A DNA stretch of 64,000 bases. Origin: Candidatus Omnitrophota bacterium (GTDB taxonomy: Bacteria; Omnitrophota; Gorgyraeia; Zapsychrales; Zapsychraceae). Location: assembly GCA_029261055.1 (NCBI GenBank), contig JAJDCA010000080.1, positions 8,952 through 72,951 of the forward strand, read 5' to 3'. Shown here piece by piece: positions 8,420-54,755 of the stretch. The notes under the pieces are model-generated. The model worked only from the letters and a program-made list of their open reading frames with translations, had not been told where the DNA came from and made no database searches. Position 1 is the first letter of the stretch. Every line of letters begins with the position of its first letter. Position numbers and translations under genes: made by a program.

Positions 8420-8438
8420 TATTTATCTCCATATATGA

Positions 8439-9602: not shown

Positions 9603-9642
9603 TTATTTTTTGACAGTATATATTTTATATTCATAACCTGAT

Positions 9643-22129: not shown

Positions 22130-22504
22130 TTAGACAAATTTCTTATTTTGAATACCCAAATGACATTTTCCATTTTTTCTTAATTCTAGACGTATTTTGA
22201 ATCGTTTCAAATCTTCCGCATATATATTTCCATTAAGTTTTAAGATTGATTGACAAAGAGAGGAGATAAATCCAGGTTGAAAGTTACAAGCAGAATAATT
22301 AACCCATCGTCCCTCTTTTCTGGATTGTATAAGACCAGCATTAATAAGAATATCCTGATGCTTTGTCAGATTATATTGTGGGACTTCTAGGGAATCAACC
22401 AACTCACACCCACAAAGTTCCTTCTTTGTCTTAAGTAAAAGGTACATCACTCGCAATCTTGTTGGTTCACTTATCGCCTTTAGTATTTTTGTCTCATTCA
22501 TCAT
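22130..22504 (-). CDS. arsR: ArsR/SmtB family metal(loid)-responsive transcriptional repressor
   Basis: HTH (ISEPTRLRVMYLL) and an ELCGCEL metal-binding motif equivalent to ELCVCDL of ArsR. Confidence 0.85.
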   Translation of the reverse strand: MMNETKILKAISEPTRLRVMYLLLKTKKELCGCELVDSLEVPQYNLTKHQDILINAGLIQSRKEGRWVNYSACNFQPGFISSLCQSILKLNGNIYAEDLKRFKIRLELRKNGKCHLGIQNKKFV

Positions 22505-22612
22505 TTTTCCTCGCTTTCATACTTGCATTACTATGCAAGTATATATCCAAAAATACACATTGTCAATAATTTTAAGGTTACAGCATCATTTAAACCACTA
22601 TTAAAAAATTAT

Positions 22613-22822
22613 TTAGAAACAATTTTTTTCTTCCTGCTTTGGCGGGCATTTGACCGTGCCAAATGAACAAAATACACAACAATCCCCTTCTTTTGGCTTT
22701 AATCTTGCTCCGCAATTTGTGCAATTATAAAAAAATTGGCAAGAATTCGTCGGCATGGTTTTTTCTTTTTTAAAACCACATTTAGGACATGTAAGGAGAG
22801 AACGCATTAACATTATTTGCAC
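22613..22822 (-). CDS. Small Cys-rich 'GDCC' mini-protein, copy 2
   Basis: CPKCG...CQFFYNCTNCG...KPKEGDCCVFCSFG. Paralog of 19895..20098. Confidence 0.55.
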   Translation of the reverse strand: MQIMLMRSLLTCPKCGFKKEKTMPTNSCQFFYNCTNCGARLKPKEGDCCVFCSFGTVKCPPKQEEKNCF

Positions 22823-23193
22823 CTGCAGGAAATTTTTAGCCTAAAATTGGCGAGAGAAATACCAATCAAAAGGAATGCCCCAGCGTACATCAACAGTTGG
22901 CTGAACCAAATATATCTACCCGCATAGATACCAAAGGCTCCCATCATGCCAACCACTAATATCCACCATTGTTTATGTAAACGGACGGCCCAAGCAAGGG
23001 AAGCGAGAGATATTAAAAGGAGCACAACAAGAAATGGCTGTAGAAATGCAACGCTGACCGCAAATCCCAATCCAATAGAAGCCAGAAATGCCCCTAGAGC
23101 TGGAATACAGAGTGGACAGACAATAGCTACTAGAGCAGAAAGCACTGAGGTTATCTGCGCTACCCATTTTGGTTTTTTTATACTTTTTGCCAT
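22813..23193 (-). CDS. Small membrane protein with a CPLC motif at the first TM and a C-terminal CRC (MerT/MerF-like transporter?)
   Basis: Three or four TM helices. VCPLCIPALGAF sits at the membrane interface. C-terminal KISCRCK. Confidence 0.45.
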   Translation of the reverse strand: MAKSIKKPKWVAQITSVLSALVAIVCPLCIPALGAFLASIGLGFAVSVAFLQPFLVVLLLISLASLAWAVRLHKQWWILVVGMMGAFGIYAGRYIWFSQLLMYAGAFLLIGISLANFRLKISCRCK

Positions 23194-23465
23194 TATGCCT
23201 GTCCGATTCCCGCGGCCATTAATGCTTCCCTATTAGGATTGCCCATTTGGCAACATTCCACAATTTTTCCATCAACAACAACCGTGGACACTGAATTAAT
23301 ACCGTATGCCTTTGACTTCTTAATGCACTCTTTCGTTTTACAGGGATTTGATAGATCGTGCACGGTAACGTCACAATTCGGACACGCCAGTTCCTTTACA
23401 AGCTGCACGGTCTCATCGCAGAGATAGCAGCCGCTTGTAAACACCTCAACATTTCTTTTTGTCAT
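23193..23465 (-). CDS. Small thioredoxin/glutaredoxin-fold protein
   Basis: About 90 aa with CYLC near the N-terminus and additional CxxC pairs. Size and spacing fit an MTH895-like thioredoxin fold. Confidence 0.45.
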   Translation of the reverse strand: MTKRNVEVFTSGCYLCDETVQLVKELACPNCDVTVHDLSNPCKTKECIKKSKAYGINSVSTVVVDGKIVECCQMGNPNREALMAAGIGQA

Positions 23466-23893
23466 TTTCTTTTCCTCCCTTCTGTTTCAATCTGCGGGCA
23501 TACCGAATATTTCATCTTCTTAGCCTGTTTCGGTTTTACCCATTTGTTTAATTTTTCTTCCAATCGTTTTTTAGCTGTGTTAAGTTCCACAATTTTATCT
23601 TCATATTTTTTTATTTTCTTTGTAAATAAATTACGAACCAAATTACAACACGGTTTAAGTCCATCTTCCGCACAATAAATAATTTCTTTAATTTCCGAAA
23701 GTTTTAATCCAAGTTCTTTTGCCTTTTTAATAAACAATAACTTATCAACATCTTTTTGACTATAAAACCGATAATCAGATCTCGTTCTTTTTGGTTTATC
23801 TAATATGCCGAATTCCTCGTAGTAGCGGATCGTTTTTGTGGAAACACCCGTCTCTTCACTTAATTTTCCAATTAATATTTTTTTGTTTTGCAT
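23462..23893 (-). CDS. MerR family transcriptional regulator (metal-responsive type)
   Basis: N-terminal MerR HTH (IGKLSEETGVSTKTIRYYEEFGIL). Coiled-coil dimerisation helix. Cys residues sit in the metal-binding loop region (CAEDGLKPCC). Confidence 0.85.
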   Translation of the reverse strand: MQNKKILIGKLSEETGVSTKTIRYYEEFGILDKPKRTRSDYRFYSQKDVDKLLFIKKAKELGLKLSEIKEIIYCAEDGLKPCCNLVRNLFTKKIKKYEDKIVELNTAKKRLEEKLNKWVKPKQAKKMKYSVCPQIETEGRKRK

Positions 23894-24002
23894 ATTTTAA
23901 CCTCAAATATAGTATACACCTTCCAGTATACTAGAAGGTCAAGAGGTATTAATTAAAACTTTTTAAAGAATTTAATTCAGTGGGTAGGAGAACGAGGGCA
24001 GA

Positions 24003-24737
24003 TTAATTAACCGTTCTTATATTTGTTTCAATATTCCGGACAGCGACAGGGCGGCCTGGCACTAATGTAATATCTGGGTTTTCGCTAAGTCGTCTTATCC
24101 AGTTTTTAGAACCTTTCGGTTTCCAATAAAGAATATATTGACCATAGGGGACATTTTTAAATGTATAAAGGCCAAACTCATCTGTAATCGCTTTGAAAGA
24201 CTCTTCTTCTTCTTTTTCCTCTGAACCAGAAAACATGTTTAGCATTCTATCTTTAACCGAATCAGCAACTTTAAGAACCCGTATTTCACAATTTGAAAGC
24301 GGCTCTCCTTTCATCAATATTTTTCCTTGAATGACACGATCCTGCGACAACATTTCTTGAATGGAATCAGCAAATGGTTGTGACGTTATTGTGGATACTG
24401 TTTGTTGGGCAGGATGATTTTGTCCCAAATTTTTTAGTGATTCAGATCCACTGACTTGAACACTTTGTTTAGGCAGCCGCAAGGTAATGGTTTCACCATC
24501 ATCAATCCAAATCACTTTTTGCAAAGCAGAAGACTGCTTTGAAGGAGGTTTTTCACCAGCTTCAATCCGTTTAATCTCATTTTTTGGGAACCTAATAATT
24601 ATTGAATCAGGATATTCTTCAAGGACTTCTCCCTGGTTTCCTGATTTTTTATTCTGAAGATAAATGGTATCTGCATTAGCCGTTATCCCCATCAAAAATA
24701 AAAAATAAAATATTCCTGCAACAATGTTAATTTTCAT
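24003..24737 (-). CDS. Secreted protein with a carboxypeptidase-regulatory-like (transthyretin-like) beta-sandwich domain
   Basis: Signal peptide. C-terminal G.I..G.P....I.V.....DEFGLYTFKNVPYGQYIL pattern typical of CarboxypepD_reg-like domains. Confidence 0.5.
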   Translation of the reverse strand: MKINIVAGIFYFLFLMGITANADTIYLQNKKSGNQGEVLEEYPDSIIIRFPKNEIKRIEAGEKPPSKQSSALQKVIWIDDGETITLRLPKQSVQVSGSESLKNLGQNHPAQQTVSTITSQPFADSIQEMLSQDRVIQGKILMKGEPLSNCEIRVLKVADSVKDRMLNMFSGSEEKEEEESFKAITDEFGLYTFKNVPYGQYILYWKPKGSKNWIRRLSENPDITLVPGRPVAVRNIETNIRTVN

Positions 24738-24773
24738 AATTTTAAAATATGTTATTATTAATATTTAATTGTA

Positions 24774-25385
24774 TTATTTTTTGATGGTGAAGTCAATTTT
24801 AGATGTATCGCTTGAAGAAACAGTCACCTCTGACTGGGAAGGTCGAAGTTTCTTATGCCAAGTCTTTAAAGTATATGTACCTTCAGGAACATTCTCAATG
24901 GTATAATCTCCATTCTCATCTGTGACAGCAAAATAAGGTGTCGGTAAAACGACAATCCACCCTTCCATTTCCGGATGCAAATTACAAAGAATAACGGCCT
25001 CTCCCAGCTTACTAAAAGTATATGCTCTTTTCTCTCCTTGCCCCCATGAGCCTAAGTTAAACTCGTCTGCTGCTTCATCAGGGGAAAACACATTATGAGT
25101 AAATGCATCGCTGTTTAGGAAATCCACTGTTGTTCCTTTCAGAATTGGAAGAACATGGGGAACAAATTCTTTAGCTAATTGATTACTTAAGACAGGTTCA
25201 ACGGAAGGGTCAAACTCTTTACCTTCAATTGTATCGACATAAACAACTGCATCTTGATTACCTTTTACTCCTTTGGCTTCGAGGTGTCCTGTAATTGTCC
25301 CTGCCCAAACAGACGAAGCCAGACAAAAAACGCCAACATTAATTAATATTAAAGTTGTTTTGAAACTACATTTTCTATATTTCAT
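24774..25385 (-). CDS. Secreted protein with a carboxypeptidase-regulatory-like domain
   Basis: Signal peptide. GTITGHL...VTDENGDYTIENVPEGTYTLK pattern. Confidence 0.5.
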   Translation of the reverse strand: MKYRKCSFKTTLILINVGVFCLASSVWAGTITGHLEAKGVKGNQDAVVYVDTIEGKEFDPSVEPVLSNQLAKEFVPHVLPILKGTTVDFLNSDAFTHNVFSPDEAADEFNLGSWGQGEKRAYTFSKLGEAVILCNLHPEMEGWIVVLPTPYFAVTDENGDYTIENVPEGTYTLKTWHKKLRPSQSEVTVSSSDTSKIDFTIKK

Positions 25386-25482
25386 GGTTTATTCAACCTT
25401 TCATTTTTATACACTATGAGGTCACAAATAAAGCCTTTCTGAACTCAATAATGCTCAATCTATAACCTCATAGAGTTCTATA

Positions 25483-26883
25483 TTAATATGAAAAATCTAG
25501 CCTTAATTTAAAACTGTCAGATGCGTCGCCATCCTTATCTGATAAACCAATAGACGCTTCGGGAATAATACGCAGATTAGGCCGTGCAAAAATTGGCATG
25601 CTCAATGCAAGACGACTTGTATTATCTGCTGGATTAGACGCTCCTAGTACCGAAACGTTTTCGACATTGAGACGGTCATACCGTGCTGCAAGGGCTAACC
25701 ATGGATAAATATAAGCAGTTGCTTCAGTATAAAAGCCCCACGTACTTATATCTTCATCAATGGTGCTGTTAAATTGACCCGCCGCAGCATCATCCTGTTG
25801 ATAAAGATAGACCATGTCGACATTATAACGGTCCCGATTGGCTCTTAAAAATCCCGTGATACGGTAAAATTGAGAATCTGTATCTGTCGCTGCGTCAATC
25901 TGGTTAAAACCCAAATACCCTGTTGTTCCTACCGTAACGGAAGGCCCTTGATCAAAGTAGGAGAATCCGGAAGCAATCTGATCTCCTGTTCCAGAATCGG
26001 CGGCACCTGTAAAGGAGAGGCCTCCAAATTTATGTTCAAGTCTGACATAAACATCTTTTTCTGTATTATTGTCACCAAAAGATTCACTAGCCCCGTCTAC
26101 AGCCTTTCCGTTGAGAACACCTGTAGCATATCGAAATCGTTTGTTAATAGTACCATGCATCTCAATACCTGATTGGCTGTCTCTTACACGCGGCTGGCTG
26201 TCAGAGGAAATCCGAAAATCATAAATAGTCGGCCTTGATGCCAATAGGTTTTGATTATGCGTTGAGAATGGCATAGCCATTGGATCAAAATAACCACCAC
26301 GAATATTAATAAGTCCATTAGGAATACCAAATTTTCCTGCTAAAACATCATTGTACATGAGGAAGACTCTTTCGACGGCAGCTCTTTCACTTTCGTCCTG
26401 AAGAGCAAAACCCAAGTTAAACGCAAGTTTTTCCCCCATTGTTCCTAATGACATGAGTTCTATTTCGTGGGGAAATTCAAACTCAGATTTTGATTCTCCA
26501 GCAGCCGTTGATTTAGACTGATCATAATTATATTGGCTGATAACTCTTAGAGCAATAGGAACATTGCCCGGGATACTCCCAGGCCAAACAGCATCGGGCC
26601 AAACTCTTTTATAGGCTTCTGACCCAAGCCAAACAGGAGGCTCTTTGACAAAAACTTCGTCGTCAGGAAGTCGATAACCATTATTCTTAAAAGAATTCCC
26701 AAAAGCGTTTAATTTCGGAAACCCAGCGTGGCACGTCATACAACTTGTCTGATACTTGCGGGAAAATGTTGGAACGGCATTAGCGTCATCGATATGAATT
26801 ACAAAACTGCAAATGATTACTAAAACCATTGTAACAATTGAAATCAATCCTCGATGAAACAACCTATTAGTTATTTCTTTCAT
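25483..26883 (-). CDS. cyc2: Cyc2-like fused monoheme cytochrome c - outer-membrane beta-barrel porin
   Basis: Signal peptide. A single CXXCH (CMTCH) lies about 13 aa into the mature protein. About 400 aa of alternating amphipathic G/Y/S/T/N-rich sequence follows, with a C-terminal aromatic tail (LRLDFSY) typical of OM barrels. Confidence 0.55.
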   Translation of the reverse strand: MKEITNRLFHRGLISIVTMVLVIICSFVIHIDDANAVPTFSRKYQTSCMTCHAGFPKLNAFGNSFKNNGYRLPDDEVFVKEPPVWLGSEAYKRVWPDAVWPGSIPGNVPIALRVISQYNYDQSKSTAAGESKSEFEFPHEIELMSLGTMGEKLAFNLGFALQDESERAAVERVFLMYNDVLAGKFGIPNGLINIRGGYFDPMAMPFSTHNQNLLASRPTIYDFRISSDSQPRVRDSQSGIEMHGTINKRFRYATGVLNGKAVDGASESFGDNNTEKDVYVRLEHKFGGLSFTGAADSGTGDQIASGFSYFDQGPSVTVGTTGYLGFNQIDAATDTDSQFYRITGFLRANRDRYNVDMVYLYQQDDAAAGQFNSTIDEDISTWGFYTEATAYIYPWLALAARYDRLNVENVSVLGASNPADNTSRLALSMPIFARPNLRIIPEASIGLSDKDGDASDSFKLRLDFSY

Positions 26884-27005
26884 TATTCCCCCTGTTTGTA
26901 GTTACGTGCTGTATGAATTTTATTATTATATTTTCTTTCAAGATATGAATTTATATCACACTGCTTAGCGAAAATCAGTGACATTTGTCACTTTTCGGAG
27001 GTTTT

Positions 27006-28289
27006 TTATTCACTTGTTTCTTCTTGTTCCCATGGATAAAGAGTCAGTAAATAGGCAATGATACTATCAATATCCTTATCGCTTAATCCCTTTGCCCAAC
27101 TCGGCATATGCAAAAGCGGTTCAGGGCCCTCTGGATCAGCTTTCCCTGCCGGGCTCCCCCTTTTTATGACATTGCGAATGGCACGGTACTGGGCTAAAAC
27201 CCTTCCTCTTTTGGGCACATCTAATTTGGGAGACATTTTGGTTATATCCACGCCATTTTTTAATAACTCTGAAACTTTATTCGCATTTTCCGGTTCATCA
27301 AGAAACATTCTTTCCGCTAAAATATTAAGTTCCGGGACTGTTCTCTTTATATAATTGATATTTTTGACACCCCCTTTTGCATCTGTTCCATGACAGGCAA
27401 CGCAATATTTGCGATAAAGCGGCTCTCCATGAACTGTTTCAGGTTGTTTTCCTTCTTGAATTTCTGCAAGATAAGAAATCGGAACCTCTTTTTTTGACAA
27501 ACCTTTCAGAAATACAGTCAGGGCTAGGATTTCTTCTTCTGAGAAATTGAAGTCTGGCATAGCTGTGATTTCCGGTTGGGCCCCTGGTTGTTTTACAGAT
27601 TCATAAATATACGCAATATTAGCATTGTGGTGAAACCTATCGAGCAATTCTTCTGAAACAGGATGCTTAAGATGAATGTTTGCATCTGAAATATTCGTTA
27701 ACTCCGGCGCAAGATTTCCACCTTTTCCTCTAAGTTCATGACATCCTAAACATCCATTACGAAGGAATAAATCTTTTCCTTTTTTCACTAAAGTGAGTTC
27801 CGGGAGAGATTCTACGTTGTGACAACGAACACAGTTGGATTCAAGAAAAGGAGGATACATCAAAGGTTTCTCCCAGAAGGCCACAGACACACCATGTGCC
27901 TCTTTTTTAGTCACTGCGCGCCCCTGACCATCATGACATACCGTACAACCGACTTTTTCTAATTCATGATCCCCCAAGATATCGCCAGGATGAACTTTAA
28001 TGGGTTGTGGAACATTAACCATCCTGGGGTCTTCTATCCCAACATGACAGATAACGCACCTATCAACACGGTTTAATTCAGGCACAACAATTTGACGCAT
28101 TTTTATTTCATAATTATCAGCTAATTTTTGTTCCTTCTTATCAATCGCCTTCTTTTTAAGTTCTTTTTTATAAAGTTTTTGGAATGGTTGCCATTCATTG
28201 TTTATATTTTCACGATATGCTTCAGCTAACAAAACAGCAATAAGTATAAGACTAGAAATTAAAATTATTTTCTCTGTTTTCATGTGCAC
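27006..28289 (-). CDS. Membrane-anchored pentaheme cytochrome c
   Basis: Five CXXCH motifs (CVICH, CTVCH, CVRCH, CLGCH, CVACH). N-terminal TM anchor. Confidence 0.8.
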   Translation of the reverse strand: MHMKTEKIILISSLILIAVLLAEAYRENINNEWQPFQKLYKKELKKKAIDKKEQKLADNYEIKMRQIVVPELNRVDRCVICHVGIEDPRMVNVPQPIKVHPGDILGDHELEKVGCTVCHDGQGRAVTKKEAHGVSVAFWEKPLMYPPFLESNCVRCHNVESLPELTLVKKGKDLFLRNGCLGCHELRGKGGNLAPELTNISDANIHLKHPVSEELLDRFHHNANIAYIYESVKQPGAQPEITAMPDFNFSEEEILALTVFLKGLSKKEVPISYLAEIQEGKQPETVHGEPLYRKYCVACHGTDAKGGVKNINYIKRTVPELNILAERMFLDEPENANKVSELLKNGVDITKMSPKLDVPKRGRVLAQYRAIRNVIKRGSPAGKADPEGPEPLLHMPSWAKGLSDKDIDSIIAYLLTLYPWEQEETSE

Positions 28290-28317
28290 TTTCTAAATAT
28301 ATTACCTGTTATCTAAT

Positions 28318-29868
28318 TTAATGAACAGGCCATTGACTTTTTAACCAGTAAAAATCCCAATTAGGTCCTCGATGATAAGTGGCGAAATAAGTTAAAATGA
28401 CAAAAGCGACCAAGAAACAAGTAAAAAGAGCAATGGCTGCCATACGTGTAGATTTATATTTTGCCATACAATAAAATGACCAAAAGACAAAAAATGTCAC
28501 TAAAACCGTTCCGGGATTAATAAAGGTAATAACAAGCTGTGGTATGTTAGGAACCCAATTCCTTAGCCAACCAAAACTCACTGTGAAAATGAGCATCCCG
28601 ATAACAGTCGCAGCGGAAAAACCAAAAGAAATCCATGCCACACGCCTACTTTCTTTATTTCGAAGCCATCGACCAATTTCTTGTTTTTCTTTGTCTAAAT
28701 AAGGTATCAACGCTAATCCCAACAGAGCGAGTGTGGGGATTCCAACGCCACCCATAAAGGCAGAATATGAAACCAATTCCTGAAGTCCTAAAAAATACCA
28801 AGGTGCTTTTGCGGGATTCTCGGGGACAACAGGATTAGCCATCTCTTTTAACGGGGCATCAACAAAATAGGCATAAACACAAATAAAAGTAAAAGTTATC
28901 ATAAAAAGAGCAGCTATTCTAATCATCATATGCGGCCAACTAGAAACTGTTTGCTCGGGGCCTCTTTCAACAGCATTGGATTCACCTTTAACAATACACA
29001 TAAGCCCGTACGTCTTCTCAGGTGCATAGTTAAATGTTTTATCGGATAAAGGATCTTTAGGTATTCCTTCGAGTTCTTTCTCTTTAATGTTATCCGGCCT
29101 GGCCAAACCACCATCTTTACGGACGCGCCAAATATGAACAGCCAATACCATAACCAAAACAATCGGTAATATAATACAATGCAGCCAATAGAAACGAATC
29201 AAAGCGTCCTCACCAATTTCTTTAGATCCCAATAAAAGAATTTTCATCAAACTACCCGGATCAAAATATTCAGTAATATTTAAGGCATCGGTTAGTTCAT
29301 TAAACGAAGCAGCAATATTTGTTGCAATCGTAACGGCCCAATAGGCAAGTTGATCCCACGGAAGAAGGTATCCTGTGAAACTCATCATCAGTGTAAGTGC
29401 CAAAAGACCAATCCCTAAAACCCAGTTGAATTGACGTGTTCGTTTATAAGCTGCCGTATAAAAAACACGTGCCATATGCAGAAAAACGCTGATAATCATC
29501 ACATTAGTGGCCCAGCGATGAACATTACGAATAAACCGTCCACCAGGGACAATAAATTGAATATCTTTTATCGAATCATAAGCCAATTCAACAGAAGGTT
29601 TATAATAAATCATTAAAAGAACGCCTGTCACGATAAGGATGATAAAGGAAGATGCTGCAATCACTCCCAAACCAAAAGTAAATTTAGGCTTTAATGAGTA
29701 GCGGTGTATTCGTGTGCTGAAAATATGCAAAAATGAATTGCCAAAAATAATTTGACTACGTGCCCGATCAGAAGTCGGTTTGTCATGCCGTATAAAGGAC
29801 TTTTGAAAGGTTTGTGGAAGTTCTTTAAGATTTTCAAAAAACTCTTTTAAACTTTTTGGTAAAGGCAT
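28318..29868 (-). CDS. Cytochrome b of a Rieske/cytochrome b (bc-type) complex; fused cyt b6 plus subunit-IV-like length
   Basis: Heme-ligand helices (RNVHRWATNVMIISVFLHMARVFYTAAY). 516 aa with 8 or more TM segments. Confidence 0.85.
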   Translation of the reverse strand: MPLPKSLKEFFENLKELPQTFQKSFIRHDKPTSDRARSQIIFGNSFLHIFSTRIHRYSLKPKFTFGLGVIAASSFIILIVTGVLLMIYYKPSVELAYDSIKDIQFIVPGGRFIRNVHRWATNVMIISVFLHMARVFYTAAYKRTRQFNWVLGIGLLALTLMMSFTGYLLPWDQLAYWAVTIATNIAASFNELTDALNITEYFDPGSLMKILLLGSKEIGEDALIRFYWLHCIILPIVLVMVLAVHIWRVRKDGGLARPDNIKEKELEGIPKDPLSDKTFNYAPEKTYGLMCIVKGESNAVERGPEQTVSSWPHMMIRIAALFMITFTFICVYAYFVDAPLKEMANPVVPENPAKAPWYFLGLQELVSYSAFMGGVGIPTLALLGLALIPYLDKEKQEIGRWLRNKESRRVAWISFGFSAATVIGMLIFTVSFGWLRNWVPNIPQLVITFINPGTVLVTFFVFWSFYCMAKYKSTRMAAIALFTCFLVAFVILTYFATYHRGPNWDFYWLKSQWPVH

Positions 29869-29895
29869 CGCAATGAATTCCTTTTATTATTTCTC

Positions 29896-30396
29896 TTACA
29901 CAACATATTTTGTACCAGCAGGAACTTTTTTCCCCGCATTAACAACTAATTTTCCGCTCGGGAGTTGACTGACTTCTAACCAGCTTAAGCCACGAGGAGC
30001 TGGCCCAGCAACAACGTCACCTCTTTCATTAAATTTAGAACCATGGCAAGGACACTGGTACCCTTTACTTGTTTTTGACACAATACATCCTAAATGGGTA
30101 CATATAAGTGAAACAGCATAAATGCCATCACCATCTCTAACAATACGCACTTTTTTGTCCTCGATGATTTTTTTGGTCCCAACAGGCATGTCCTCCGGTT
30201 TCCCGATTTTGAAAATATTGGAAACATCGGGTAATAATGCCGGTTTAGGAAATTTTAACAAACCAATCATTGTTAAAGTCCACGCTGTAATAGATGCACC
30301 AATGGTAGATAATTTCAAAAATTTTCTTCGGCTAATCTTATTTTCTGAATCAATTTGGTAATCACGTTTATGGCCTTTTTGATCCGTTGAACTCAT
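29896..30396 (-). CDS. Rieske [2Fe-2S] iron-sulfur protein
   Basis: CTHLGC...CPCHGS boxes. Twin-arginine-like RRKFLK signal followed by a TM anchor. Confidence 0.85.
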   Translation of the reverse strand: MSSTDQKGHKRDYQIDSENKISRRKFLKLSTIGASITAWTLTMIGLLKFPKPALLPDVSNIFKIGKPEDMPVGTKKIIEDKKVRIVRDGDGIYAVSLICTHLGCIVSKTSKGYQCPCHGSKFNERGDVVAGPAPRGLSWLEVSQLPSGKLVVNAGKKVPAGTKYVV

Positions 30397-32255
30397 CTTA
30401 AAATCTCCTTAAAAGTAAATCGCTCCATAGTTATGGCGTCGACGGGACAACGGATCGCGCACAAAGCACACCGAATACACTTTTCTTCATCTTTAATAAT
30501 AGCCGTCAATTTATCTGTTTGTTTTCTCTTTTTCATAAGGTCAAACAATTTAAAAATTGATTTGTCTCCTTGCAGCTTAGCTACGGGGACTAGCTTTAAA
30601 CACAATTCAGGACAGACATCAACACATCCGCCACAAAGGATACATTTATTTCCATCAAAAATAGTATTAACCCCGCAGTCCAGACAACGAGCCCCCTCTA
30701 TTTGGGCCTGCCCAGAGGTAAATCCTTTTTCAATAACAATTTTATGATTAAACATTCTATCTTTAACATCAACTGTTTCAAATACCTGGCGTCGAATTTT
30801 CTCATACCCCATCTCCCGGGAATAATCTTCAATTGGCGTGTGCACTTTTTCTATTTTTGTCTCTATTTTTATACCGCTTACTTTATGATAAATCGACCGT
30901 GCAACTTTTTTACCGCTCGCGATTGCATCAATCATCAAACGGGGGCCATAAGCCAGATCACCGGCCAGAAAAACGCCATCGGCACTTGTTGAAAAAGTTT
31001 CTGGATCACAAACAATATTACCCCGCTCATTTATTTCTAGCCCATCTTTTTTAGGATCAATGAAGGAAACATCCGAACTCTGTCCGACTGCAAACAGGAC
31101 CGTGTCCGCTTCCAGGGTAAGAGTATCGGAAGGGTCATATTGAGGATTAAACCGATTATTTTCATCAAAAACCGAAGTTACTTTGTAAAACAAAACACCT
31201 TTAACTCTTCCCTGCTCTGTTAAAATTTTTTGTGGGCCGTAACCATTGTGGCGCATAACTCCTTCTTCTTCTCCCTCTAAAATTTCGATCTCATCAGCCA
31301 GCATTTCGTTTTCCGATTCAAGACAAACCAAAGAAATATGTATACCTTCCCGCTCATGCAAAGCGGTGTTGACCACATCCACTTGTTGCTGCCGAAGGGC
31401 TGATCGGGCAATGTCATAAGCGACATTCCCGCCGCCAATGACAACAACTTTAGTTCCGATGTCACGAGGTAGATCAAGGGACACGTCTCTCAAGAATTCA
31501 ACGCCGCCTAAAACTCCGGAAGCATCAGCCCCGGGAATTGGTAGAGACCTCGACTTTTTGCAGCCAACAGCAATCACAACAGCATCATGGCGCCTTCGCA
31601 GCTCCTCAAAAGTTACATCTTTACCGACAGTACAACTTGTTATGATTTTAACGCCCAATGATTTAATAACTCCAATTTCCGCATCGATTAATTCTCGCGG
31701 AAGTCGATATGCGGGGATTCCTAAATAAAGCATTCCTGCCGGAATAGGCTCCATTTCGTATATCGTTACTGAAAAACCCATTAAAGCAAGATCATGCGCC
31801 CCAGCAAGGCCTGCCGGTCCTGAACCAATAATTCCGACACTTTTTTCATGCATTTTTTTGAATTTTCCAGATTCCACATTGATTAAGAAAGCTCCCAAAT
31901 CTTCAATATCAATACACTCTCTATTCTCTAAATTTGTACGAATTTTTTTGATAACGTCTAATGGTGTTTTTAGTGCTTCTGAATTTTCTACCGCAGACCG
32001 TTTTAGACCTCTAATAGAAACACTTTTGTCAATACTACCGCGCCGACAGGCAGCTTCACAAGGAGCGCCGCAAACACGGCCACAAATAGAAGCTAAAGGA
32101 TTAGGGGCACGTGCGATCAAATAGGCCTGCTCAAAATTCCCTTCTGCAATAGCCCGGACATATCCGCGTGCATCCGTATGTACAGGGCAGGCATACTGGC
32201 ACTTAATTTGCTTTTTCCAATAATTGGAATTCGGGATTTCGACTTTCAGCTTCAT
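30393..32255 (-). CDS. GltD-like FAD/NAD(P)H-dependent oxidoreductase Fe-S flavoprotein with C-terminal 2x[4Fe-4S] ferredoxin domain
   Basis: N-terminal Fe-S motif C..CP.......C..C....C. Two Rossmann GxGxxG motifs (GIIGSGPAGLAGA, VVIGGGNVAYD). C-terminal CILCGGCVDVCP and CIRCALCAIRCP. Confidence 0.8.
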   Translation of the reverse strand: MKLKVEIPNSNYWKKQIKCQYACPVHTDARGYVRAIAEGNFEQAYLIARAPNPLASICGRVCGAPCEAACRRGSIDKSVSIRGLKRSAVENSEALKTPLDVIKKIRTNLENRECIDIEDLGAFLINVESGKFKKMHEKSVGIIGSGPAGLAGAHDLALMGFSVTIYEMEPIPAGMLYLGIPAYRLPRELIDAEIGVIKSLGVKIITSCTVGKDVTFEELRRRHDAVVIAVGCKKSRSLPIPGADASGVLGGVEFLRDVSLDLPRDIGTKVVVIGGGNVAYDIARSALRQQQVDVVNTALHEREGIHISLVCLESENEMLADEIEILEGEEEGVMRHNGYGPQKILTEQGRVKGVLFYKVTSVFDENNRFNPQYDPSDTLTLEADTVLFAVGQSSDVSFIDPKKDGLEINERGNIVCDPETFSTSADGVFLAGDLAYGPRLMIDAIASGKKVARSIYHKVSGIKIETKIEKVHTPIEDYSREMGYEKIRRQVFETVDVKDRMFNHKIVIEKGFTSGQAQIEGARCLDCGVNTIFDGNKCILCGGCVDVCPELCLKLVPVAKLQGDKSIFKLFDLMKKRKQTDKLTAIIKDEEKCIRCALCAIRCPVDAITMERFTFKEILR

Positions 32256-32257
32256 AG

Positions 32258-33340
32258 TTAAACGGGAATGGAAGATACTTTGTTTATTGAATCAAATTTA
32301 TAGTTATATATTTTTCTTTCTTTCATTTTTCTTAATTGATCATAAAACTCAGATATTTTCTGGGCAATAATCTGTTCTACAAGAATACTGGAATCTTTTC
32401 GTTTCTCCATATTGTCTTCAACAACTTTATCTAAATCATCAATAGAAAACAAAAGAACGTTTTCTATTTTTGCCACATTAGGGTCGATATTGCGTGGCAT
32501 AGAAATATCCAATAACAATAATTTCTTATTCCTTCGTTGTGCCATAACTTTTGTTACTAAATTCCTTTCAACGATTATATGGGGAGCATTGACAGAGCAG
32601 ATGCATACGTCTACTTTTTTTAAAATTTGCTCAATTTCACTAAAGGGAACAATTTTTCCTCCGATTTGTTCCGCTAACTCTGCAGCATGAGCCGTTGTCC
32701 TGTTCATAATGTATAAATCTTTGACGTTTTTGCTTTTTAACTGCCGACCTGTCAGGGTGCTCATCTTTCCTGCCCCGATTATTAAAACAGACTTATTGCT
32801 AAGGGTTTCTATCATGTTTTCGGCCATTGTGACGGCGGCCCAACTCACTGAAGAGCCGCCTGCTCCAATAGACGTTTCATTTTGTGCCTTTTTGCCGCAC
32901 TGAATCACTAAATTAGATAAAATATTAAATAAAGAAGATAACATCCCCTTTTTTCGTGACAAGTTTACGGCAGCTTTTATTTGACCTAATATTTGTTTTT
33001 CTCCTAAAACAAGAGAATCCAATCCGGTGGCAACACGGAAAAAATGATCGACGGCTACTTGATCGGTCAGTGAATAAAAATGTTTTTTTAAAGGCGAAGT
33101 TATATCAAGATGTTTGATTTGAGCTAACAGTCCAATCAATGAGTCAGGCGTAAAGTTTGAAATCGTATTTACATATATCTCGGTACGGTTACAGGTCGAG
33201 ACAACAATTGCTTCAATGATACTTGGATATGATTTAAGTTCACTAAGTAAAAGTTCCTGTTCCAAGTCCCTCAAATAAAATTTTTCCCTGACTTCTATGG
33301 GGGCGGTTTTATGATTAATGCCAACAACCTGTATTTTCAT
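32258..33340 (-). CDS. hemA: Glutamyl-tRNA reductase
   Basis: N-terminal MKIQVVGINHKTAPIEVREKF, catalytic-Cys region TCNRTEIY, NADPH-binding GAGKMS. Confidence 0.9.
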   Translation of the reverse strand: MKIQVVGINHKTAPIEVREKFYLRDLEQELLLSELKSYPSIIEAIVVSTCNRTEIYVNTISNFTPDSLIGLLAQIKHLDITSPLKKHFYSLTDQVAVDHFFRVATGLDSLVLGEKQILGQIKAAVNLSRKKGMLSSLFNILSNLVIQCGKKAQNETSIGAGGSSVSWAAVTMAENMIETLSNKSVLIIGAGKMSTLTGRQLKSKNVKDLYIMNRTTAHAAELAEQIGGKIVPFSEIEQILKKVDVCICSVNAPHIIVERNLVTKVMAQRRNKKLLLLDISMPRNIDPNVAKIENVLLFSIDDLDKVVEDNMEKRKDSSILVEQIIAQKISEFYDQLRKMKERKIYNYKFDSINKVSSIPV

Positions 33341-33900
33341 CGTTTATCTTTCATAATAGATGCGACACTTCCACAGTTATTCAGATTTCTAAAAAGCAAA
33401 CTTTGCTCATCAGAATGCAGCTCTTGGTCAATACACATATAAAGGCTTTTCTTTTCTATCTCAAAATGGCTTTGGATTAAATAATAAAAGAATGCTATTT
33501 TCTCGCCCACACTCTCAATACACAGTTTTTGTTCTTTCGCATTCTCAGCGGAATAAATTGATTTGAGGGTCTGATTGATTTTTCTTAAACTTTTCTTTAT
33601 TTCTTTATTTTCTTCCTGAAATATATGAATCAATGGGCTTAGGCGAGGGATGTGAGCTTCAAAAAAAGGAAAAACGATTTTTTCATCCAATCTTATATAC
33701 AACAATAGTTTGTTTTTAATTTCTTCTGCCATTTTACAAAGTTTTTGTAAATTTACCTCAAGGCAAGCCTTTCCTACATAGGGGAGACTTTGAGAACAAT
33801 TCAAGAGCTGGTTAGCTTTTTGTAGAATTATTACCTGATTTTTTTCAAGAAACACTCTAATTTCACCTGAACGAAACATACTTATTTTCATTTTTGACAT
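33337..33900 (-). CDS. Hypothetical protein, possibly hemerythrin-like (H-x3-E repeats)
   Basis: Overlaps the hemA start by 4 nt (translational coupling). Has HIFQEENKE and HFEIEKK motifs. No confident family assignment. Confidence 0.35.
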   Translation of the reverse strand: MSKMKISMFRSGEIRVFLEKNQVIILQKANQLLNCSQSLPYVGKACLEVNLQKLCKMAEEIKNKLLLYIRLDEKIVFPFFEAHIPRLSPLIHIFQEENKEIKKSLRKINQTLKSIYSAENAKEQKLCIESVGEKIAFFYYLIQSHFEIEKKSLYMCIDQELHSDEQSLLFRNLNNCGSVASIMKDKR

Positions 33901-33980
33901 TGTAGTAATTTATCAGCACTGAACATTCTTTGCTGTGATAAATATCACTTTCTCGAATAAAAATGTTGTTTAAAATATTC

Positions 33981-34679
33981 CTAATCTTCCATAAGGAGTC
34001 TTTGTAATTCCGCTATTTTATTGATTCCTATACGTTTTGATTGGACATCAATTATTTTCTGACGTTTCAGTTGGCTTAAATGTCTGGTGACCGTTTCTCT
34101 TGTCGTTCCGATACGGTGGGCAATTTCTTCACGGGTAAAAAGGAGGTCGAATGTATCGATTTTTTGCCCTTGGACAATCATTTGTTCATACATATCGATA
34201 AGGAATTTGATCAATTTTTTTTTGCTATTATTGAGTGAAATGTCTTCCATAAACGAGCAAAGCTGGCACATTTTTTTTGCAAAAACTTGATTCAAAGCTT
34301 GCGAGACATTCAGATTGTTTTGTACCAATTGGGTATAATGTGTTCGGCCAAGCACCCAGACGCGGCAATCTGTCAGGGCTTGAGCGGAGGAACTACATTG
34401 CCAAGTTACCGCCCCAGGGTTACAGGCACATGTATCACCCGGTTCCAAAATTTCAATAATCTGCTCTCTTCCCGAAGGTGCGGTCCTAAACACTTTTATT
34501 CGTCCTGACATTACGACAGTGATATTCTGGCATTCATCTCCTGACAAATGAAGAACGCGCCCCTTTGTATATGATTTTTCTATCAAACACTTTGAAATAT
34601 GATTCAAGTCTTTTATCGAAAGTTTTGAAAAAAATGGGACGTCCCGTAATTTAATTAACGATTTTGTTTTTTTTGACAT
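33981..34679 (-). CDS. Crp/Fnr family transcriptional regulator
   Basis: cNMP-binding beta-roll followed by the C-terminal HTH RETVTRHLSQLKRQKII. No classic FNR N-terminal Cys cluster, but internal Cys residues are present. Confidence 0.8.
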   Translation of the reverse strand: MSKKTKSLIKLRDVPFFSKLSIKDLNHISKCLIEKSYTKGRVLHLSGDECQNITVVMSGRIKVFRTAPSGREQIIEILEPGDTCACNPGAVTWQCSSSAQALTDCRVWVLGRTHYTQLVQNNLNVSQALNQVFAKKMCQLCSFMEDISLNNSKKKLIKFLIDMYEQMIVQGQKIDTFDLLFTREEIAHRIGTTRETVTRHLSQLKRQKIIDVQSKRIGINKIAELQRLLMED

Positions 34680-34704
34680 AAAGTAAGCCTGATGACTAAA
34701 GTAT

Positions 34705-36093
34705 TTAAAATATTCCGAAAAATTGACCTGCTACGATTAAAAATCCCAAACCACAAGCGCTTGAGATGGCCACCCCGTAGGATTTTTTATTCCAAAAAAT
34801 TAATACAAATCCAAATAAAATGCTGACTAACCCAATGGAAGAAAATATTTCATGATAATTTTCAACAGGTGGACGCGACATAATAATCGTAAATGAAATC
34901 ATTGCCCAGGCGTGAAGGATAAAACCTAAAATCAGCAGAAATAATGAAAAGTATGTAAAAAATGTCCTTTTAAACAAAATGTACAAAATACTCATGAAAA
35001 GGGCTATGCCGTAAAATAATTTAGTCCACAATAAAGGATTTAAATAGTTATTAAAAATTTCTATTTTAAAATGCCATGCATTAAAATTCTTCTCGCCTGA
35101 AAGAACAAGTCTGCTTTTTATCGACCGCTGAAAAGCTCGCACATCCATATCAAATTGTAATTGTTCGCCATTCCAGTAATACACAACAAGATTTCTTAGA
35201 AAATTTATTTCCTTCTCTATTTCCGGATTCTTAAACTCCCTGTTAATTGCCTCCCAAGGACTACTCCAAAATTTGTCTTGAGGATTAAGTGTTGGTATCA
35301 TTGCCACGGAACTACTTTCATAAGACATTGACCAGCGAAGAAGATTCCCCAGCAAACGTAATAACTCCTTTTCCTGGAGAGTTCTCTCTTCAATAGTTTT
35401 TTGATCAACATTTTTTGTAGCTGACATAATGGCTTCAGCTTTTGAAGCGATATCTAAAAAACTGTATAAATTCTTCCCCTGTGATAAATTGAGTAGTTGA
35501 ACAATATCATCGTTATTTACTTGAAAATCTATGTTTGGAATGGCAAAAGAAAAACTATTGGCAAGATTTGTATACAATACAATATTTTGATAAAGACGAA
35601 TGACGTCACTCTCAAAAATATTCCGATTGTTTTCTTTAATCCCCTCCGCTGATTTAGCCAGATCAATTAACTTTTGCAAGCTCGGTTCAATTTGGGCAAA
35701 GCTATATCGTCCCTTTGCTTCAGTCGCAATCTCTAATTTTGAAAGAACCTCAGCATTATTGATTAAAAAAACCTTATCTTTTCGTGTGTTTCCAGGAGAG
35801 AATAAAATTTTTGCAAGCCATTCTATTGCCGGTTTTTGGTTAAAAGAATTCTTCCCGGAAAATTGCACCATAAAACCTCGAGCATACGTATCAAGTGGCT
35901 TTATTCTCCCCTGGTCTAAAATGGCCATTGTCTTAAAATATTCCAAAGAAGATATTCCTTTAGATTTTATATTTTGCGACAAAGGGAAAATTTGCTGAGC
36001 ATAAGTATTAGACAATACGCCCCATGAATTAATAAAAATAAATATAAATATGATGTGCTTAAACATTTTTTTGTAATGTGACAATGTAAACAA
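34705..36093 (-). CDS. Membrane protein with a large periplasmic N-domain and four C-terminal TM helices, hypothetical
   Basis: Signal peptide, about 330 aa of soluble domain, then a C-terminal hydrophobic bundle. It follows the Crp/Fnr regulator. Confidence 0.45.
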   Translation of the reverse strand: MFTLSHYKKMFKHIIFIFIFINSWGVLSNTYAQQIFPLSQNIKSKGISSLEYFKTMAILDQGRIKPLDTYARGFMVQFSGKNSFNQKPAIEWLAKILFSPGNTRKDKVFLINNAEVLSKLEIATEAKGRYSFAQIEPSLQKLIDLAKSAEGIKENNRNIFESDVIRLYQNIVLYTNLANSFSFAIPNIDFQVNNDDIVQLLNLSQGKNLYSFLDIASKAEAIMSATKNVDQKTIEERTLQEKELLRLLGNLLRWSMSYESSSVAMIPTLNPQDKFWSSPWEAINREFKNPEIEKEINFLRNLVVYYWNGEQLQFDMDVRAFQRSIKSRLVLSGEKNFNAWHFKIEIFNNYLNPLLWTKLFYGIALFMSILYILFKRTFFTYFSLFLLILGFILHAWAMISFTIIMSRPPVENYHEIFSSIGLVSILFGFVLIFWNKKSYGVAISSACGLGFLIVAGQFFGIF

Positions 36094-36185
36094 TTAGTCT
36101 TAAGTAAAAAATGAAGAAATGCTATTTGAGGAAATAAGGAATGTAAAATTAGACAAAGATAAAAATATAGAAATTCCCTATAAAC

Positions 36186-36644
36186 CTATATCGTATAGAG
36201 AATAGGAGGAGCATGGGCGGGTGATGTGATAAGAAATACGATTTTAAACCTGTCGGTGCCAGGCGGGTCCAAATAATGGAAGGAATTCCAAATTTCGGAC
36301 AATTGAGAAATTTCAGCAACAACCAAAACAGCAGAATTGTTAAAAAAATCTAAAAAGTTTCTTAAGAAATCAAATGTTAAATTTTGTTTTGATGTGATGC
36401 TGACCGCTTTGATCGTAGAGCAACAAAAAGAGTCTTCTTCATCTTCATGGCTAGACGTTGCATCTTCTGAATGGGTTTCTTCATCGGATTGACTATGTGC
36501 TGCTTCAGCAGAATCGTGATGGGGGCCGCATTCAGAGGAAAGGGCTAAAGACGAAATCCCGCAAAAATTTAGTAATAGCGCAAATGAAAAAATGATAACT
36601 GGGGCAAATTTCCACTTTCTGATTGTAGAATTGATCAATTTCAT
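36186..36644 (-). CDS. Small secreted acidic His/Glu/Asp-rich protein of the 'FCCSTIKA' family (copy 1)
   Basis: Signal peptide. HSQSDEETHSEDATSSHEDEEDSFCCSTIKA. Paralog of 38344..38802. Conserved promoter/operator immediately upstream. Confidence 0.5.
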   Translation of the reverse strand: MKLINSTIRKWKFAPVIIFSFALLLNFCGISSLALSSECGPHHDSAEAAHSQSDEETHSEDATSSHEDEEDSFCCSTIKAVSITSKQNLTFDFLRNFLDFFNNSAVLVVAEISQLSEIWNSFHYLDPPGTDRFKIVFLITSPAHAPPILYTI

Positions 36645-54720: not shown

Positions 54721-54755
54721 ATTTTTTTGCTCCTTTCATAAGAGGACTTTTATCG

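Follow-up and report, generated by a model that had tools for sequence, protein, structure and literature searches.

A Cyc2-family porin gene clustered with cupredoxin and NAD(P)-linked Rieske/cytochrome b genes in a Candidatus Omnitrophota bacterium

We analysed a 64,000-nucleotide (nt) stretch of a Candidatus Omnitrophota genome (assembly GCA_029261055.1, contig JAJDCA010000080.1, positions 8,952 to 72,951), here called the window, which is about 36% G+C and carries nearly all of its genes on the minus strand. Nine co-directional minus-strand genes run from 33900 to 24003. Those from 32255 to 24003 encode a Cyc2-like cytochrome-porin, a secreted copper protein, and a Rieske/cytochrome b complex with a flavoprotein predicted to bind NAD(P), and we infer from these parts and from their conserved linkage that they encode one electron path across the cell envelope. 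A sequence-only reading of the same DNA had singled out this cluster as a candidate conduit from an extracellular donor such as Fe(II), through the quinone pool, to NAD(P)H; the analysis below keeps the module and revises the route. The nine genes and a regulator gene upstream of them, listed in the direction of transcription with protein lengths in amino acids (aa), are as follows.

33981-34679, minus strand: Crp/Fnr-family regulator (Pfam cNMP_binding and HTH_Crp_2).
33337-33900, minus strand: hemerythrin-like protein (Pfam Hemerythrin, 27.4 bits).
32258-33340, minus strand: glutamyl-tRNA reductase, hemA (TIGR01035, 356 bits).
30393-32255, minus strand: NfnB/GltD-like oxidoreductase with flavin adenine dinucleotide (FAD), NAD(P) and multiple [4Fe-4S] sites, 620 aa (Fer4_20, Pyr_redox_2, two Fer4).
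29896-30396, minus strand: Rieske [2Fe-2S] protein with a twin-arginine export signal, 166 aa (Pfam Rieske).
28318-29868, minus strand: cytochrome b with fused b6-like and subunit-IV-like parts and a C-terminal extension, 516 aa (Pfam Cytochrome_B, E 7e-36).
27006-28289, minus strand: membrane-anchored pentahaem cytochrome c, 427 aa (five CXXCH; Pfam Cytochrom_C and Cytochrome_CBB3).
25483-26883, minus strand: Cyc2-family fusion of a monohaem cytochrome c to a predicted 16-strand outer-membrane porin, 466 aa (motifs, model and fold matches).
24774-25385, minus strand: secreted type-1-copper cupredoxin with a C-terminal CarboxypepD_reg-like beta-sandwich, 203 aa (Pfam Copper-bind and CarboxypepD_reg).
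24003-24737, minus strand: secreted protein with a weak prealbumin/CarboxypepD_reg-like C-terminal beta-sandwich, 244 aa (weak Pfam matches only).

The genes between 24003 and 32255 had been described as six co-directional, tightly spaced open reading frames (ORFs). Their orientation, on the minus strand, their spacing and their placement all hold, and they number seven. The reported 4-nt overlap between the oxidoreductase and Rieske genes is real, with the stop codon of the first and the start codon of the second sharing ATGA, and the two are predicted to be translationally coupled. The hemA stop lies 2 nt ahead of the oxidoreductase start and the hemerythrin-like gene overlaps hemA by 4 nt, so that the compact block extends upstream of the span first described. 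The remaining intergenic gaps in the nine-gene block measure 27-122 nt; the longest precedes the Cyc2-like gene and contains a weak hairpin (26992-26977) and a good ribosome-binding site. A scan of 23400-36400 for promoters and terminators gave counts no higher than in shuffled sequences, and matches to the FNR box (TTGAT-N4-ATCAA) were at chance level, with none near the cluster.

The identity of the porin is central to any account of this cluster. Keffer et al. (2021) defined Cyc2 proteins by a signal peptide, a single CXXCH, an AXPXFAR[Q/K][T/Y] motif upstream of it, PXL four residues downstream, a minimum length of 365 aa, and a barrel of 16 strands like those of OprO and OprP. The window protein opens with a hydrophobic leader that ends at ANA/VP and has one haem motif (CMTCH, residues 48-52) at about residue 12 of the mature protein. 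Its AlphaFold2 model (predicted local distance difference test score, pLDDT, 74.8; predicted template modelling score, pTM, 0.76) contains a 16-strand beta-barrel over residues 110-465, and the C-terminal residue is Tyr. In Foldseek searches the model matched 16-strand and general porins, including OprO (4rjw, E 4e-11) and OprP (2o4v, E 1e-10), the templates reported for Cyc2. The motifs run ...ANA/VPTFSRKYQTS-CMTCH-AGF-PKL..., in which AVPTFSRKY matches the published upstream motif at every position bar one A-to-S change. A strict filter for PXFAR[Q/K][T/Y] would exclude the protein for having FSR in place of FAR; among the related loci, 39 have FAR and 16 have FSR. PXL is present as PKL, with P56 and L58 at least 90% conserved, and the consensus of 38 relatives is AIPxFARKYxTSCxTCHxxFPKLNAFG. 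The signal peptide, lone haem motif and barrel had all been noted in the sequence-only reading, and the published motifs, with one substitution, the strand count and the OprO/OprP-like fold agree with its assignment of the protein to Cyc2. By motif and model, the protein is best filed as a member of the Cyc2 family, with the A-to-S deviation as a caveat; Fe(II) oxidation and an outer-membrane location are predicted for it.

Searches of Pfam and NCBIfam with this protein returned no match. Some of its homologues carry PF07396, which we take to be the phosphate-selective porin O/P family. A search of a plasmid collection found homologues in Ralstonia and Methylocystis only, both matching the cytochrome domain alone. 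The homologue on the Ralstonia megaplasmid carries the canonical motif (AVPAFARQT...CMACH...PEL); in hhalign our family profile aligns with its signal peptide, its cytochrome domain and the first strands (E 3e-13, probability 98%), and BLASTP gives 44% identity in the cytochrome domain, the barrel not being alignable by sequence. Conservation limited to the cytochrome domain is usual between Cyc2 clusters, which are mutually 15-23% identical overall. A conserved segment of about 30 residues after the cytochrome domain (VKEPPVWLGSEAYKRVWPDAVWP) is specific to the window's subfamily and is not found in the Ralstonia protein. In the window protein this strongly conserved segment (KEPPVWLGSEAYKRVWPDAVWP) lies at residues ~78-105, between the cytochrome domain and the barrel, and could be a docking surface for the cupredoxin.

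That cupredoxin is the product of the next gene, 24774-25385. The two genes following the porin gene had been read as secreted carboxypeptidase-regulatory-like proteins, a description that stands for the beta-sandwiches, weakly matched in the second protein, and that missed the type-1 copper site of the first. Residues ~64-146 of 24774-25385 match Pfam Copper-bind (23.6 bits, cutoff 21.2), and the protein aligns with the extra cupredoxin domain of Thermus NirK (6hbe, E 5e-8), including the Cys-x2-His-x2-Met loop. The presumptive ligands H97, C134, H137 and M140 are invariant in 35 homologues, and C-x2-H-x2-M is kept in all 81 cupredoxin homologues from loci with a Cyc2-like gene. The AlphaFold2 model (pLDDT 89.7) resembles amicyanin, plastocyanin and pseudoazurin in Foldseek. 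The family is large (2,247 members at E <1e-5, many of them labelled "plastocyanin" by JGI) and far better conserved than Cyc2, with 50-60% identity across phyla against about 30%. These features suggest that the protein is a periplasmic electron carrier and the partner of Cyc2. The second protein, 24003-24737, has a signal peptide, read from its sequence, and no redox motif; it is probably an accessory of the module. Its family occurs in 14 related loci, apparently largely from Omnitrophota, Planctomycetota and Verrucomicrobiota.

Directly upstream of the Cyc2-like gene lie, as the sequence-only reading had said, the genes for a pentahaem cytochrome c, a cytochrome b, a Rieske protein and a flavoprotein. 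The Rieske protein has a twin-arginine motif (SRRKFLK), and its closest solved relative is Kuste4569 of anammox bacteria (9rk4, E 6e-25), ahead of green-sulfur, Kustd1480 and b6f proteins. Its cluster-binding boxes are CTHLGC and CPCHGSKF, the latter with the Ser/Phe pair of Kustd1480, for which a potential above +300 mV has been measured. The cytochrome b has about eight transmembrane segments and the Qo motif APWY, and its best match in the PDB is spinach cytochrome b6 (E 4e-35). The haem-b ligands H117, H131, H230 and H245 and an extra histidine, H48, are 100% conserved in 22 homologues, and the sequence NPAKAPWYFLGLQE is conserved. His48 precedes the first helix. In AlphaFold3 models of the anammox complexes, an N-terminal histidine of each cytochrome b monomer (His43 of Kuste4571, His62 of Kustd1481) is the proposed ligand of an extra haem b at the dimer interface, which leads to the flavoprotein. 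His48, likewise N-terminal, appears to parallel these residues, and its position is putatively equivalent. Among NCBIfam models the highest scores, both below cutoff, were for ExtP (233 bits, cutoff 290) and ExtQ (64 bits, cutoff 150), which points to a subfamily related to these Geobacter proteins and not to an equivalog.

The pentahaem cytochrome has an N-terminal hydrophobic helix and CXXCH motifs at 78, 115, 153, 180 and 296, arranged as three closely spaced haem motifs and two class-I cytochrome c domains; its homologues in other phyla mostly have eight haems. The flavoprotein combines a two-cluster N-terminal domain of the GltD/NfnB type (Fer4_20), a Pyr_redox_2 domain for FAD and NAD(P), and a C-terminal ferredoxin domain with two [4Fe-4S] clusters, and its sequence contains no signal peptide or transmembrane segment. 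Its best PDB matches are NfnABC (9bov and 9bp5, E 9e-82), NfnI, GltD and DPD; NfnABC is also the structural homologue that Hauser et al. reported for Kuste4570. The likeness to anammox complexes proposed in the sequence-only reading gains from the Kuste4569 match, the template shared with Kuste4570 and the extra N-terminal histidine on cytochrome b. Its label "kuste4574-type" for the flavoprotein was mistaken: the anammox NAD(P) oxidoreductases are Kuste4570 and Kustd1483, and Kuste4574 is an octahaem protein like hydroxylamine oxidoreductase (HAO). Judged by these matches, the inner-membrane and cytoplasmic part of the module belongs with the NAD(P)-linked Rieske/cytochrome b complexes of anammox bacteria as an enzyme of one kind.

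The linkage of these genes extends well beyond the window. A scan of a genome collection found at least 574 relatives, of which the best 80 loci were kept; the window proteins were compared by tblastn with 84 distinct loci, and all ORFs of the loci were clustered. Two Omnitrophota relatives, with Cyc2 proteins 70% and 50% identical to that of the window, have the same seven genes in the same order between unrelated flanks. A cupredoxin homologue follows the Cyc2-like gene in essentially every locus with enough flanking sequence. Rieske and cytochrome b genes are present in 31 of the 84 loci, 26 of them with the flavoprotein gene, and in six further loci the contig ends just after the flavoprotein gene. 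Outside Omnitrophota the genes usually run in the order sensor kinase, sigma-54 regulator, receiver, Cyc2, cupredoxin, flavoprotein, Rieske, N-terminal and C-terminal cytochrome b, octahaem c and monohaem c, and the Rieske/cytochrome b genes thus follow the Cyc2-cupredoxin pair there and precede it in Omnitrophota. The carriers span about ten phylum-level lineages as recorded, comprising Omnitrophota, Ignavibacteriota, Bacteroidota, Acidobacteriota (including Thermoanaerobaculia), Zixibacteria, Glassbacteria, Neomarinimicrobiota, Planctomycetota, Desulfobacterales and Gemmatimonas. The type strain of Ignavibacterium album was considered as a cultured carrier and ruled out, as it is reported to have alternative complex III only. 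Recurrence in so many lineages, with changed gene order and unrelated flanks, indicates that the linkage is not due to chance and is functional, the latter as the sequence-only reading had supposed.

More than half of the related loci have the Cyc2-cupredoxin pair without Rieske/cytochrome b genes. In eight of these, proteins of the CuA (COX2-like) type and a NapH-like polyferredoxin membrane protein are encoded instead. These loci (L010, L017, L031, L051, L052, L061, L064 and L076) contain, downstream of the pair, a membrane cupredoxin of 169 aa whose C-x3-C-x3-H-x2-M motif is CuA-like, a 489-aa NapH-like polyferredoxin membrane protein (Fer4_5), and a COX2-like CuA domain fused to cytochrome c; the set may represent an undescribed terminal or quinol-linked complex. 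In six loci a YtkA-like gene, presumably for a copper chaperone, lies between the Cyc2 and cupredoxin genes. We conclude from gene content that the pair is probably a fixed unit that plugs into alternative inner-membrane modules, of which the NAD(P)-linked Rieske/cytochrome b complex is the commonest.

How electrons would move through such a module is constrained by published potentials. These are about -80 mV for menaquinone, -320 mV for NAD(P), above +300 mV for the anammox Rieske proteins, +208 mV for the haem of Cyc2 PV-1, and 0 +/- 100 mV for Fe(II)/Fe(III) at pH 7. If menaquinol is split and one of its electrons goes to a carrier at +300 mV, we calculate that the other is left with 2 x (-80) - 300 = -460 mV, enough to reach NAD(P)+. 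Conversely, for an electron from a +300 mV carrier to enter menaquinone, a partner electron of about -460 mV must come from the cytoplasmic side, so that a donor Fe(II) and a product NAD(P)H are incompatible within one complex. The route from Fe(II) through the quinone pool to NAD(P)H in the sequence-only reading therefore fails for a mechanism of the Qo type, where these potentials imply that Fe(II) as donor means NAD(P)H consumed, and its energetics lead us to reject it for one complex. If NAD(P)H is the product, as has been proposed for anammox bacteria, the periplasmic chain must be an electron sink.

The arrangement that we favour would place Cyc2 in the outer membrane, the cupredoxin and the second beta-sandwich protein in the periplasm, the Rieske protein, cytochrome b and pentahaem c at the inner membrane, and the flavoprotein in the cytoplasm. 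Electrons would pass, in either direction, between the Cyc2 haem, type-1 copper, pentahaem c, Rieske cluster, Qo site, b haems, Fe-S clusters, FAD and NAD(P). In this arrangement the Rieske/cytochrome b complex would oxidise menaquinol at Qo and split its two electrons. One would take the high-potential branch from the Rieske protein through pentahaem c to the cupredoxin, and this would pay for the other to take the low-potential branch, over the b haems, the haem held by His48, four Fe-S clusters and FAD, to NAD(P)+. The cupredoxin would serve as the hub and as the obligate partner of the porin, a role suggested by its constancy as Cyc2 neighbour, its copper ligands in 81 of 81 homologues, its high conservation, the alternative CuA-type modules and the YtkA-like gene. 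The single haem of Cyc2 would exchange electrons with a dissolved metal, most likely Fe2+/Fe3+, with outward flow to chelated Fe(III) where this is the sole sink, and inward flow from Fe(II) where electrons are drawn from the copper pool by an enzyme encoded elsewhere, either a terminal oxidase or one of denitrification. The complex alone would be unable to turn electrons from Fe(II) into NAD(P)H.

We thus prefer, tentatively and with a probability of roughly 0.45, a complex that oxidises quinol, reduces NAD(P)+ and hands electrons to the cupredoxin, and in which Cyc2 links the copper pool with dissolved iron. We prefer it because it reconciles what Cyc2 is known to do, the proposal for anammox bacteria, the alternative partners of the CuA type and the energetics. 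Forward bifurcation, reverse operation and a Q cycle fed by NAD(P)H are all coherent modes.

Several points weigh against forward bifurcation. NAD(P)+-reducing bifurcation in anammox bacteria is itself a proposal resting on models, and the anammox models include haem cN, for which the window cytochrome b lacks the Cys (Cys35 of b6): in the alignment with spinach b6, FGLG stands against YCLGG, with Gly at the site. Five of the loci with Rieske/cytochrome b genes have no flavoprotein gene. According to one proposal, Qo motifs of the APWY form are the mark of complexes working in reverse, and the characterised Cyc2 proteins have all been assayed as Fe(II) oxidases. Neither the cluster nor the 64-kb window encodes a terminal oxidase or reductase, which leaves the sink for inward flow as an assumption, and the high-potential chelated Fe(III) needed for outward flow may be in short supply in the anoxic places where the carriers live. 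Finally, the module's members are known here from genes and models alone, and the potentials that we apply to the haem, copper site and Rieske cluster of the window are borrowed from other systems.

Alternatively, the complex may run backwards for uphill electron uptake, as in the rus/petI model of Acidithiobacillus ferrooxidans and close to what the sequence-only reading had in mind. Electrons from Fe(II) would pass through Cyc2, cupredoxin and pentahaem c to the Rieske protein, and the complex would reduce menaquinone, drawing the partner electron from NAD(P)H, by way of the flavoprotein and with help from the membrane potential, or from quinol at the Qi site. NAD(P)H would then be a co-donor and not a product, which denies this scheme the very outcome envisaged at first. 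Fe(II) oxidation is the only activity shown for Cyc2 proteins, and a narrow 16-strand pore suits soluble Fe2+. Type-1 copper sites typically have potentials of +250 to +400 mV, and a ladder that rises from Fe(II) near 0 mV through the Cyc2 haem (+208 mV in PV-1) to copper and the Rieske cluster favours inward flow. The proposal for APWY complexes fits this scheme, and the pet operon of A. ferrooxidans likewise has an NAD-related gene, sdrA. By our own accounting, however, the yield would be no better than that of NAD(P)H oxidation of the NDH-2 type, and an energetic benefit is not evident; no downhill oxidase is encoded nearby, in the cluster or the 64-kb window. One prominent group of carriers, the Ignavibacteriales, has been described as obligately heterotrophic. 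Most other carrier lineages are anaerobic heterotrophs, which we also count against uphill uptake. We consider this scheme doubtful.

A further step away is outward respiration, in which NAD(P)H would feed the flavoprotein and then the haems of the cytoplasmic side and the Qi site, and a normal Q cycle would pass electrons through the Rieske protein, pentahaem c, cupredoxin and Cyc2 to a dissolved oxidant outside the cell, for example Mn(III) or chelated Fe(III). About 2 H+ would be conserved for each electron. The association of b6f with FNR in cyclic electron flow offers a conceptual precedent. Heterotrophic lineages and known or annotated Fe(III)-reducing ones, such as Ignavibacteriales and Zixibacteria, are among the carriers; the top NCBIfam scores of the cytochrome b are for ExtP and ExtQ, from a Geobacter cluster in which a porin lies beside Rieske and cytochrome b genes; and the alternative partner in other loci looks to be of the NapH type, which we read as a quinol dehydrogenase. 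Yet carriers at +200 to +300 mV would need a soluble acceptor of high potential, Fe(III) reduction has been reported for no Cyc2 protein, and Hauser et al. judged the reduction of quinone by NAD(P)H in the anammox complexes to be wasteful and unlikely. On this balance we regard outward respiration as distinctly unlikely.

The metal at the porin need not be iron. Cu(I)/Cu(II) or Mn(II)/Mn(III) could be oxidised or reduced there, possibly for detoxification, and the window cluster does lie among Cus-type efflux pumps of the resistance-nodulation-division (RND) family, a Cu-type P-type ATPase, YHS/TRASH proteins, and MerR, MerC and ArsR genes. YHS and YtkA-like genes also occur near the module in other loci, and a role for Cyc2 in oxidising Mn(II) has been suggested in Ca. 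Manganitrophus. But the metal-resistance context is not conserved: the related locus L001 has FeoAB, Zip and a pyrophosphatase around the module, and L002 has signalling genes, NnrS and rubrerythrin. The YtkA-like gene is more simply explained as a copper chaperone for the cupredoxin, and a respiratory complex linked to quinone and NAD(P) exceeds what detoxification needs. A non-iron partner is thus very improbable, and metal detoxification as the main role is rejected, since the context differs in relatives. Last, that the Cyc2-cupredoxin pair and the Rieske/cytochrome b genes are mere neighbours without a common function might be argued from the 122-nt gap with its hairpin and ribosome-binding site and from the majority of loci that have the pair by itself, but it is scarcely credible given that 31 of 84 loci, from about ten phylum-level lineages, show the adjacency although gene order is rearranged and the flanks are unrelated, and with synteny kept across phyla we reject chance.

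Other genes of the block and its surroundings may serve the module. The Crp/Fnr-family gene at 33981-34679 is a candidate regulator of the block, with a homologue, 78% identical, in the same position in L001. Together with this gene, one for a 462-aa membrane protein without a Pfam match (34705-36093) is conserved upstream in L001 (60% identity); a stretch 'RPPVENYHE' in its C-terminal transmembrane region resembles, by our reading, the N-terminal part of CcsA, and there is no WWD domain. The hemA gene is probably a co-transcribed haem-supply gene and is not a conserved member of the module, being upstream in L002 and absent from L001. It is short, at 360 aa, spanning positions 1-339 of the 416 in TIGR01035, and its C-terminal domain is apparently missing. 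The hemerythrin-like protein is a possible accessory that senses O2, NO or iron, and in L001 its homologue lies directly upstream of the oxidoreductase gene. In the 50%-identity Omnitrophota relative (L002/L003) an NnrS gene (3424-4605) stands between hemA and the flavoprotein gene. NnrS proteins are haem-copper membrane proteins tied to NO stress, and the NnrS gene of the relative together with the hemerythrin and Crp/Fnr genes of the window hints at regulation linked to O2 or NO.

The wider window is a metal-efflux-rich region around the cluster. At 5315-11306, 51607-57811, 60719-63976 and 12507-13445 are two complete Cus-like RND triads (AcrB-family pump, CusB-type HlyD_D23 adaptor and outer-membrane factor), a third AcrB-like gene that matches its Pfam model in three pieces, and a lone adaptor gene. 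YHS/TRASH domains occur at 40611-42887, 44106-46061, 48055-49473 and 59830-60390, on a P-type ATPase that also has HMBD, in a small YHS protein and, unusually, in fusions with a phosphoenolpyruvate-utilising enzyme and a type II/IV secretion ATPase. Directly downstream of the cluster, 22130-23893 encodes a MerR regulator, a thioredoxin-like protein, a MerC-like transporter and an ArsR regulator. Two neighbouring ORFs (1682-2311 and 2313-2849) match different parts of the Pfam model for a type II/IV secretion ATPase (T2SSE), a split that may reflect a frameshift or a pseudogene. The product of 20134-21264 joins an MtrA-like domain (tetrahydromethanopterin S-methyltransferase subunit A) to the pterin-binding DUF4346. 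Genes for S-adenosylmethionine-dependent and PEMT/ICMT-type membrane methyltransferases are interspersed with the metal genes at 11922-12392, 14208-14831, 46725-48036 and 50942-51646, adjacent to each other only at 46725-48036.

Our findings bear on how Cyc2 genes are interpreted. Surveys have reported iron-cycling gene matches, including Cyc2-type "iron oxidation" genes, in Ignavibacteriales, Zixibacteria and Omnitrophica. In the DeMMO communities, where these groups carry iron genes, FeGenie reports mainly Cyc2 cluster 3, which bears on the window protein only indirectly. NAD(P)-linked Rieske/cytochrome b complexes are already known from anammox bacteria, and a porin beside a complex of the bc type from Geobacter. 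In the searchable full-text literature, whose coverage leaves out most subscription journals, we saw neither the Cyc2-cupredoxin pair nor its association with a Rieske/cytochrome b complex of the NAD(P)-linked kind described. The components are thus of known kinds in an undescribed combination, that is, a new architecture. By way of FeGenie, Cyc2 matches widely serve to mark "iron oxidation" in metagenomic data. A large Cyc2 subfamily with a fixed copper-protein partner, and often a dedicated inner-membrane complex, makes direction and function testable, and cautions that not every Cyc2 match means Fe(II) oxidation.

The anammox complexes pose an open bioenergetic problem; there are no genetics for them, and the high-potential partner of one is unidentified. 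The homologous complexes in Ignavibacteriota, Bacteroidota, Acidobacteriota and other lineages, which have an obvious periplasmic partner, may be more tractable for tests of quinone-based bifurcation to NAD(P)H. The most far-reaching form of our proposal is that, outside anammox bacteria and in about ten mostly uncultured lineages, a bifurcating Rieske/cytochrome b complex makes NAD(P)H from menaquinol and is wired by copper to Cyc2, such that dissolved iron directly gates NAD(P)H and Cyc2 is an outlet or bidirectional valve and not simply an Fe(II) oxidase. We hold this stronger claim to be rather unlikely as a whole. If the chain itself is real, common subsurface and sediment bacteria have a short route through the envelope, with one haem and one copper between the membranes, from dissolved iron to the quinone and pyridine-nucleotide pools.

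Each part of the module has a counterpart among characterised systems. Compared with the known Cyc2 proteins (A. ferrooxidans Cyc2, Mariprofundus Cyc2 PV-1, Leptospirillum Cyt572, and FeGenie clusters 1-3), the window protein shares the signal peptide, lone N-terminal CXXCH, A-x-P-x-F-[A/S]-R-K-Y and P-x-L motifs, a length above 365 aa and the OprO/OprP-like barrel of 16 strands. It differs in having FSR and not FAR, in the segment after the cytochrome domain that the Ralstonia protein lacks, and in its host, which is no known iron oxidiser. The constant neighbour of its subfamily is the cupredoxin-beta-sandwich protein, whereas the Ralstonia and Methylocystis loci have c-type cytochromes downstream. 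The Uet cluster of Ca. Tenderia and the Cyc2 of Ca. Mariimomonas were set aside as different systems. The A. ferrooxidans rus and petI genes (Cyc2, rusticyanin, CycA1, reverse bc1 and sdrA) likewise combine Cyc2, a periplasmic cupredoxin, a c-type cytochrome, Rieske/cytochrome b and an NAD-related gene, and both Qo motifs, PPWY there and APWY here, have Pro at the second position. In the window, however, all parts lie in one cluster, the cupredoxin is of a different family and carries a beta-sandwich domain, and a large flavo-Fe-S subunit takes the place of the short-chain dehydrogenase as the NAD(P) protein. Menaquinone, at neutral pH, is the probable substrate of the b6-type complex, and the cluster encodes no oxidase.

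The extHIJKLMNOPQS cluster of Geobacter sulfurreducens is conserved and likewise unites the gene of an outer-membrane porin (ExtI) with those of multihaem cytochromes, the Rieske protein ExtO, the cytochrome b ExtP and the membrane protein ExtQ. ExtI, reported to be weakly similar to phosphate-selective porins, has no fused haem, and the ext cluster has a rhodanese and 10- and 12-haem cytochromes instead of a cupredoxin and NAD(P) flavoprotein. With cytochrome b6f and plastocyanin the window shares a b6-type Rieske/cytochrome b complex and a mobile type-1-copper protein as its likely partner; it differs in having no photosystems, a pentahaem c in place of cytochrome f, an extra domain on the cupredoxin and a flavoprotein encoded with the complex. 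The complex itself resembles those of Kuenenia stuttgartiensis (Kuste4569-4574 and Kustd1480-1485), where the genes encoded together likewise comprise a Rieske protein, a cytochrome b of the b6 type plus a part like subunit IV, a multihaem c that replaces f or c1, and an NfnB/GltD-like flavo-Fe-S subunit, with the same Ser/Phe pair as in Kustd1480 and an analogous N-terminal histidine on cytochrome b. Compared with these, the window complex has cytochrome b and subunit IV fused, five haems in its c-type cytochrome and not six or eight, no Cys at the haem cN site (Cys35 of b6), and no HAO-like octahaem partner. Rather than serving the nitrogen chemistry of an anammoxosome, it would sit in the cell membrane of a diderm bacterium, wired through a cupredoxin to a porin in the outer membrane.

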